Source: Mobula hypostoma (Eukaryota). Taken from it: a stretch of DNA of 64,000 nucleotides. The DNA lies in assembly GCF_963921235.1 (NCBI RefSeq), contig NC_086108.1:59894001-59958000 (forward strand), given 5' to 3'. The position numbers and the translations under genes were made by a program. Positions 42,407 through 42,870 of the stretch are shown here, piece after piece; the first letter of the stretch is position 1; each line of letters starts with the position of its first letter. The notes beneath the pieces are model-generated. The model had not been told where the DNA came from. It ran no database searches and saw nothing but the letters and a program-made list of their open reading frames with translations.

Positions 42407-42870
42407 TTAGACTTGATGTTCAAACTCAAAGGAATAGGAAGTACAGTTATTGTACATAAAAACAATTGCCTGGAGAAATACTGGAAGTTTTCCCTCTAAT
42501 TGGGCATAGTTAATCTCTGATGGCTTCCACAGGAAATGATTAAGCATGGGTCCCAAATACGGGGAGCGATTCAATGGTGCAACATAAAGGGTAATGTGCA
42601 TGCTCACGTCAGGTGGTATTTCAAAAAATGGTTCAGCATCAGGTGGCAGCTTTACAGCAGCAGCAATAGCTTCGGGGCCCACACAGGGAGCAAAAATAAT
42701 AAGAGGGAATGACTTACTGTTACGATCTTGCAACAATTGTTTTGCTGTTTTTCTCGTGCAGGTGGTCCAGATCCTCTGCGGAATAATGTGCCGTACAGTG
42801 GACAGTCATATGTCACTCAAATATCATGTCTGGATATTTCTCTGAAAGTTCCAGCAGTTGCTTAACCGTA
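42407..42870 (-). pseudogene. CNPase-like 2H phosphodiesterase domain within ERV pol, between PR and RT
   Basis: VHCTAHY (HCT codons 42792-42800) and, after one frameshift, SKSFPLIIFAPCVGPEAIAAAVKLP...IPPDVSMHITLYV...LGPML (HIT codons 42590-42598). Confidence 0.72.

Follow-up and report, generated by a model that had tools for sequence, protein, structure and literature searches.

Introduction

Epsilon-like endogenous retroviruses (ERVs) of teleosts now and then encode CNPase or macro domains (Basta et al. 2009, as cited in the review PMC4977317), and 2H domains have been described in a fish retrovirus and in WDSV (Mazumder et al. 2002, as cited in PMC9503650). CNPase hallmark residues include Phe235, Gly324, Arg307 and Val321 (PMC4643303, PMC3290555), and the enzyme possesses a helix, alpha7, that is absent from other 2H enzymes and blocks large ligands on that side; furthermore, rat CNPase complements the phosphodiesterase of yeast Trl1 (PMC3290555). 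2H/CNPase domains in fish retroviruses are thus already in print (2002, 2009), and the provirus described here adds a member. The literature searched, consisting of main texts with few subscription papers, contained neither a report of such a domain in cartilaginous fish nor a functional test of one, and the main text of a zebrafish ERV survey (PMC8672886) makes no mention of it.

Here, we analyze a 64-kb stretch of DNA from Mobula hypostoma (referred to as the window), in which a sequence-only reading had noticed a CNPase-like domain within a retroviral remnant and had invoked a teleost ERV precedent, correctly so according to the review citing Basta et al.

Results

A heavily decayed class I provirus

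On its minus strand, the window holds a provirus of full-length layout and heavily decayed sequence, arranged in the order 5′ LTR, gag, protease (PR), 2H domain, reverse transcriptase (RT), RNase H, integrase, env, polypurine tract and 3′ LTR. The 5′ LTR (51783-52104; TG...CA) shows a 76-80% match to the 3′ LTR (33119-34005), which is preceded by the polypurine tract (34006-34025). The two LTRs differ by a K2P distance of 0.25 over 286 sites, and their flanks are identical at three of four bases, as in a decayed target-site duplication. A divergence of 0.25 is about ten times that of elephant shark proviruses as given in PMC4422223; the elephant shark rate from this source would yield an impossible age, and LTR dating was dropped. 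The 3′ LTR carries ~600 bases (33228-33823) that are missing from the 5′ LTR. Between 5′ LTR and gag, the leader (48700-51780) is filled by later insertions, LINE-like fragments as well as an element matching positions 10978-11118 in inverted orientation, and displays no clear primer-binding site.

The gag remnant (47300-48630), identified by a CCHC zinc knuckle (Pfam zf-CCHC, E=0.0014) and DNA homology to sibling copies, is broken up by a short repeat (~47937-48071). The protease is split into an N-terminal part (47056-47276; Pfam RVP, E=0.002) and a C-terminal end (44570-44651; Pfam RVP, E=0.055), both also detected by tblastn with an unbroken Pol, and the latter containing the sequence PINLLGRDLL at about 44640-44610. 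Separating the two is a nested 2.4-kb insertion (44657-47055), composed of an LTR-element remnant with a DUF7041 match (E=1.7e-12) and LINE fragments, and bearing 180-bp direct repeats (44657-44836 and 46856-47035) that are 79% identical. The RT region (41703-42340), of class I (gamma/epsilon-like) and riddled with stops and shifts, was recognized by tblastn with the unbroken Pol and by PDB matches. As detected at 42221-41703, it is 32% identical to the unbroken relative over 192 columns that include eight stops, and its best PDB matches are MLV/XMRV-type RTs (E 9e-8). Tether and RNase H remnants (40785-41415; RT_RNaseH, E=0.004-0.006) are followed by an integrase remnant (39760-40400), the extent of which was set by sibling homology and which includes Pfam matches at 40127-40396 (rve, E=7.4e-6; Integrase_H2C2, E=0.028).

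Within env resides a minus-strand gypsy LTR element (34735-39152) flanked by a 5-bp target duplication and with an LTR K2P of 0.08. It is one of two near-complete gypsy elements of a single family in the window (26926-31169 and 34735-39152), 90% identical and 8 kb apart. Translations of the adjacent env transmembrane remnant (34114-34730), for which Pfam returned no match, revealed a CX6CC motif, which we take to be a mark of gamma-type Env. The provirus is of class I (gamma/epsilon-like), with an MLV-like RT and the canonical gene order. Because of the CX6CC motif in env, it resembles those fish ERVs that are described as combining an epsilon-like RT with a gamma-type Env (PMC9967133).

A broken 2H domain between protease and RT

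Between the end of the protease and the RT, at a position now borne out by the RVP and RT matches on either side, the provirus carries the two HxT motifs of the sequence-only reading. Translation of the minus strand places the first (His-Cys-Thr, HCT) at 42800-42792 and the second (His-Ile-Thr, HIT) at 42598-42590, in separate frames. The proposed spacing of ~67 codons applies to a sibling without a net shift (L025/L006; 201 nt), the window copy itself having 202 nt between the motifs. The one defect that had been claimed, a frameshift, is real and is accompanied by two in-frame stops, of which one lies four codons ahead of the first His and the other at 42409-42407. An aromatic residue follows at +5 from the first HxT, and a Gly at +15 from the second.

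The Tc1/mariner transposon that had been noted in this segment is indeed present on the plus strand (42880-44470), with ~210-bp TIRs, a duplicated TA and Pfam matches to HTH_Tnp_Tc3_2 (E=1e-10) and DDE_3 (E=1.6e-9). However, rather than preceding the domain, it interrupts it, since siblings are continuous across the insertion point (as they are across the insertion site in the protease). The main body of the domain (42410-42877, minus strand), defined by translations as well as sibling and profile alignments, contains the stops and, between the motifs, the frameshift; the N-terminal piece lies 5′ of the transposon at 44473-44560, where siblings align and run ungapped into position 42879. We regard the PR-RT segment as the remnant of a 2H phosphoesterase domain in a dead class I provirus. 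As had been stated, both motifs survive in a copy that is dead, and this fossil adds little when taken alone.

Siblings and further ERV families

Protein and DNA searches (11 matches of 44 candidates in one, 16 matches in the other) located the window's family at 14 other places in the genome, 61-79% identical and decayed in every copy. As anticipated, the segment is present in sibling proviruses, which run on across the site without a gap. The protease end lies 5′ of the domain in 8 of 10 sibling loci tested, and RT lies 3′ of it in 6 of 10. Motif 1 can be read without gaps at 9 of the 14 places and is a full HxT at one; motif 2 is readable at 11 and full at five; none of the 14 has both motifs in full. 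This erosion is compatible with neutral decay and by itself no proof of conservation. Nine family rows gave no 2H match in Pfam, and the three PDB matches of a family-only profile were all unrelated proteins. Two siblings on separate contigs (L022 and L023) share an identical RT deletion (window equivalents ~42395 to 41189) with the 2H domain retained, possibly representing a non-autonomous sub-lineage; parts of RT are also missing in L024, L026 and L031.

When a family profile built from natural pieces was run against 1.84 billion proteins, five matches were obtained at E<=0.001, three of which are genuine (P0003, P0004 and P0005). The others, a starfish repeat protein and a mussel ankyrin protein (P0001, P0002), were rejected as their scores were inflated by repeats. 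P0003 consists of a protease followed by a 2H domain with both motifs intact, and the window-family profile aligns to it with both motifs in register (E 2.7e-11); its ESM Atlas matches, at only 0.81-0.82, are a lead. In P0004, an ERV protein of the rainbowfish Melanotaenia boesemani, the 2H domain is followed by RT. Neither the viral contigs searched nor word-index protein searches yielded a relative of the domain.

The P0003 domain, used as a query, matched 114 places in the genome at E<=1 (171 candidates, 150 scored). The best 20 of these 114 belong to a young ERV family (listed loci L038-L057, L084), in which PR, 2H and RT occupy one natural frame of 919 codons right after the gag stop; in the 20 best loci, HCT is preserved in 19 and HIT in all 20, 61 residues apart. 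Twenty weaker loci, grouped by eye, comprised three further young-family copies and four more divergent families. About six ERV families of this one genome (the window's and some five more) bear the domain.

A 30-row alignment (A5) was assembled using 14 of the 20 divergent and five of the 20 young-family loci, with L059-L061 (young family again), L062, L070 and L073 omitted. In the rows from outside the window's family (five families plus three database proteins), HxT is read at motif 1 in 19 of 21 and Hx[TS] at motif 2 in 20 of 22, bearing in mind that rows within one family are not independent; between families, domain identity is 16-29%. The motifs, whose conservation among ERV copies the sequence-only reading had proposed to check, are hence eroded in the window's own family and kept in the others. 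When the six-frame translation of the entire window was searched with a profile of the 22 rows, from which the window's family was excluded, only two matches fell below E=10, namely the frame of HIT (E 2.4e-11) and that of HCT (E 0.02).

In the young family, variants present in at least two of 20 copies gave dN/dS values of 0.17 (PR), 0.26 (2H) and 0.15 (RT), as compared to 0.72, 0.81 and 0.61, respectively, for singletons. The value of 0.26 for shared variants indicates the 2H domain to have been under purifying selection during virus replication.

Sequence profiles and hallmark residues

Pairwise, the likeness to vertebrate CNPase noted in the sequence-only reading is not significant, because BLASTP of the window piece against the CNP exon of its own genome gave E=14. 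In contrast, profiles recover it: the family-only profile matches the host CNP exon with E 0.017 and the all-family A5 profile with E 7.9e-6, in ungapped register; for the CNP exon bearing motif 1, the match (E 0.018) covers 14 columns only. In the PDB, 20 of the 22 matches of the A5 profile are CNPase or goldfish RICH, which also rank at the top (best E 0.042). A single unbroken relative had three PDB matches, all unrelated, and phmmer with the window piece none at E<=10.

None of the 30 A5 rows matched Pfam CNPase (PF05881) or AKAP7_NLS, and no 2H match was obtained with Pfam on the window ORFs. Genome-wide, PF05881 retrieved host CNP exons only, and an AKAP7 search fragmentary host matches only. 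The weak Pfam matches were to Acb1 (seven of the 30 rows; best E 0.0019, all far under the curated cut-off of 27 bits) and 2_5_RNA_ligase2 (four rows). PHROGs returned the 'RNA ligase' family phrog_755 for four of 30 (E 0.0014), and a phage gp57B was matched with E 0.1. The window ORF was placed by the ESM Atlas with tRNA_lig_CPD, CNPase and 2H-SAK clusters (0.95-0.96).

With respect to CNPase hallmarks, all 25 of 25 rows have an aromatic residue (Phe or Tyr, at +5) in the place of Phe235, and 21 of 27 have Gly (at +15) in that of Gly324. Arg307 and Val321 are each kept in none of 27 rows, with Lys at the Val321 position in 19, and therefore substrate preference may have shifted. Taken together with the predicted fold (see below), we assign the domain with high confidence to the 2H phosphoesterases of CNPase/Trl1 type. 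It is of this type by its modeled fold and not a PF05881 member by score.

Capture from a vertebrate CNP gene is likely but unproven. As for a CNP versus a Trl1-type origin, the profile favors CNPase, the folds score nearly alike (Z 11.6 versus 10.0), and the Atlas favors tRNA_lig_CPD. The host CNP exons occur twice, ~180 kb apart (C91:33.776-33.962 Mb; L012-L017), with identical last exons and one set in an odd exon order, reflecting either a tandem duplication or an assembly artefact.

Predicted fold

The fold was modeled on the unbroken domain of the young (sister) family, to which the window copy is linked by profiles and to which the window piece is 18% identical in A5. The resulting AlphaFold model, of modest confidence (pLDDT 55, pTM 0.56), matched mouse CNPase with Z 11.1 (rmsd 4.7, 150 aligned), and the top 21 rows of the structure search, covering 48,161 chains, were all 2H proteins. 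Lower scores were obtained for MHV ns2 (Z 6.3), Acb1 (5.3-5.4), rotavirus VP3 (4.8), AKAP18 (4.7-4.8) and the penguinpox PDE (4.5). A second structural comparison gave Z 10.7-11.6 for CNPase crystal structures and 10.0 for the CPD of fungal Trl1, which despite this score was absent from the wide VIA listing. Foldseek E-values of the model against CNPase were 0.006 or worse, and a first model (P0003 domain, 8 rows, pLDDT 51) had no match in Foldseek or VIA. In the model, a helix (116-128) begins 11 residues past the second His (His105), at the position of alpha7, which suggests the domain to retain this CNPase helix along with the beta5-alpha7 loop. The 2H/CNPase relationship that had been put up for checking by profile and structure thus emerges from the all-family profile and the sister-family model, and not from Pfam CNPase.

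A probable second address in Env

Among predicted viral structures (BFVD, searched with Foldseek), the top match of the model was Q2VF30_1, a 1072-residue piece (E 8e-7) of what we take to be salmon swim bladder sarcoma virus. WEHV-1 (E 7.3e-6) and WDSV (E 1.8e-3) were matched as well, in entries (Q9WHI8, A4GTG3) labeled envelope polyproteins, unlike the location in Pol seen here. WDSV Env is described as having a cytoplasmic loop of ~170 residues (875-1044) between two membrane helices (PMC3185748), and this loop, similar in size to the domain, probably holds the 2H match. From Pol and from Env alike, the domain would be exposed to the cytosol and to the inside of the virion.

Discussion

We read the domain as a CNPase/Trl1-type Pol enzyme that opens 2′,3′-cyclic phosphates on RNA ends and nucleotides, a reading to which we give a probability of roughly 55%. 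An extra enzyme within retroviral Pol is rare, dUTPase being the textbook case. As for chemistry, cleavage, packaging and purpose, we infer the following. The 2H domain would be translated as part of Gag-Pol and packaged in the virion, where the viral protease would probably free it as an enzyme of ~160 residues; short hydrophobic runs at both domain borders look to us like MLV cleavage sites. Once released, the enzyme might turn 2′,3′-cyclic ends left by host ribonucleases into 2′-phosphate/3′-OH ends, and the loss of these cyclic-phosphate danger signals would likely blunt nuclease-based defence. Alternatively, it might heal cut tRNA or viral RNA ends, as ends with a cyclic phosphate cannot be extended, although we know of no viral ligase to complete such a repair. 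RNAs ending in a cyclic phosphate are reported to stimulate RIG-I/MDA5, NLRP3 and TLR8 (PMC8406329). Both immune antagonism, via OAS/RNase L or cGAS-STING, and RNA-end healing had been offered in the sequence-only reading; the former is weakened by the fold comparison (Z 4.5-6.3 versus 10.7-11.6) and by helix alpha7, and the chemistry of the latter fits best.

The strongest competitor, albeit an unlikely one, holds that a change of specificity turned the domain into a phosphodiesterase of cyclic dinucleotides, akin to phage Acb1 or the avipox PDE, which would destroy cGAMP in the virion or the new host cell and thereby silence cGAS-STING. Retroviral DNA is sensed by this pathway, which both bony and cartilaginous fish possess, and this favors the idea, as do the Acb1 matches in 7 of 30 rows, the gp57B match and the replacement of CNPase Val321 by Lys in 19 of 27 rows. 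Viral 2H enzymes have, moreover, repeatedly taken on a cGAMP-cleaving role, as set out in PMC11410667. However, the model scores about half as high against Acb1 (Z 5.3-5.4) and the penguinpox PDE (4.5) as against CNPase (~11), helix alpha7 obstructs large ligands, and every Acb1 profile match falls far short of 27 bits. We give still less credit to a non-catalytic role, in which the domain would compete with host CNP, stand in as its decoy or act as a Pol spacer. Host CNP is interferon-induced, binds Gag and stops HIV-1 particle formation without enzyme activity (PMC5758531), and dN/dS of the domain is slightly above that of PR and RT; nevertheless, the catalytic motifs and the stacking aromatic are kept at ~16-29% identity, and a surface decoy would have no need of them.

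A 2-5A phosphodiesterase directed against OAS-RNase L, as in coronavirus ns2/NS4b and rotavirus VP3, has an even smaller chance of being correct. Consistent with it, ns2 is the best fold outside CNPase/Trl1 (Z 6.3), OAS genes are present in the host (11 exon matches, spread over two contigs), and the OAS-RNase L system is reported to work in cartilaginous fish (PMC10400998). According to the same source, ray-finned fish lost OAS-RNase L, yet the domain is kept by the rainbowfish protein P0004, by teleost ERVs and by walleye viruses, making a general anti-RNase L role unlikely. In addition, known 2-5A phosphodiesterases are described as descending from AKAP7-like genes (PMC10835031), and the model resembles AKAP18 with a Z of only 4.7-4.8. 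The OAS matches form a cluster of about three genes at C78:31.04-31.17 Mb (L034-L037), and stop-containing OAS fragments lie on C59. Finally, the two motifs could be chance triplets in a decayed spacer, given that the window piece alone finds no Pfam, PDB or BLASTP match and that the motifs are eroded within its family. This explanation is refuted by the alignment of the family profile to P0003 with both motifs in register and by the independent profile that recovers both window frames from the six-frame search, and it is also countered by the conservation, selection and fold seen in the relatives; we regard it as vanishingly improbable.

On the preferred reading of a cyclic-phosphate-opening Pol enzyme, an enzyme of this kind would occur in some six ERV families of one genome, where purifying selection is seen, and in teleost viruses. 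The many unbroken natural copies make the question of its substrate directly testable. The answer would bear on the ways in which retroviruses cope with defences that cleave RNA or signal through nucleotides, and also on the physiological role of CNPase. More speculatively, and with considerable doubt on our part, fish class I retroviruses of deeply diverged lineages may use a virion-borne CNPase-like enzyme to disarm nucleotide-based innate immunity, be it cGAMP or cyclic-phosphate signals, a need that would also have kept the walleye copy in Env. If true, this would be, to our knowledge, the first case of a retrovirus attacking a second messenger with an enzyme.

Among known systems, the CNPase-bearing epsilon-like ERVs of teleosts are likewise class I fish ERVs with a CNPase-type domain; P0003 (PR then 2H) and P0004 (2H then RT) share the order of the window provirus and align to its family. 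In this genome, by contrast, OAS genes are retained, which makes a ray-finned host improbable, and the window copy is old and broken. The virus-encoded 2H proteins MHV ns2, rotavirus VP3-CTD, Acb1 and avipox cGAMP PDE belong to the same superfamily; however, they are AKAP7/LigT-like, are devoid of alpha7 and reach Z 4.5-6.3 only. Closer is the CPD of fungal Trl1 (PF08302; 6u05), with Z 10.0, the top named ESM Atlas clusters and the same chemistry class, although it is part of a ligase-kinase-CPD enzyme and is not retrieved from the PDB by the sequence profile. CNPase and fish RICH (PF05881; 2xmi, 1woj, 2i3e) provide the best match in both fold and profile, sharing with the viral domain the two HxT motifs, the aromatic at Phe235, Gly324 and helix alpha7. 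By comparison, the viral domain is shorter (~160 versus ~210 residues) and 10-18% identical, has its motifs 60-67 residues apart, and lacks a kinase-like domain as well as Arg307 and Val321.
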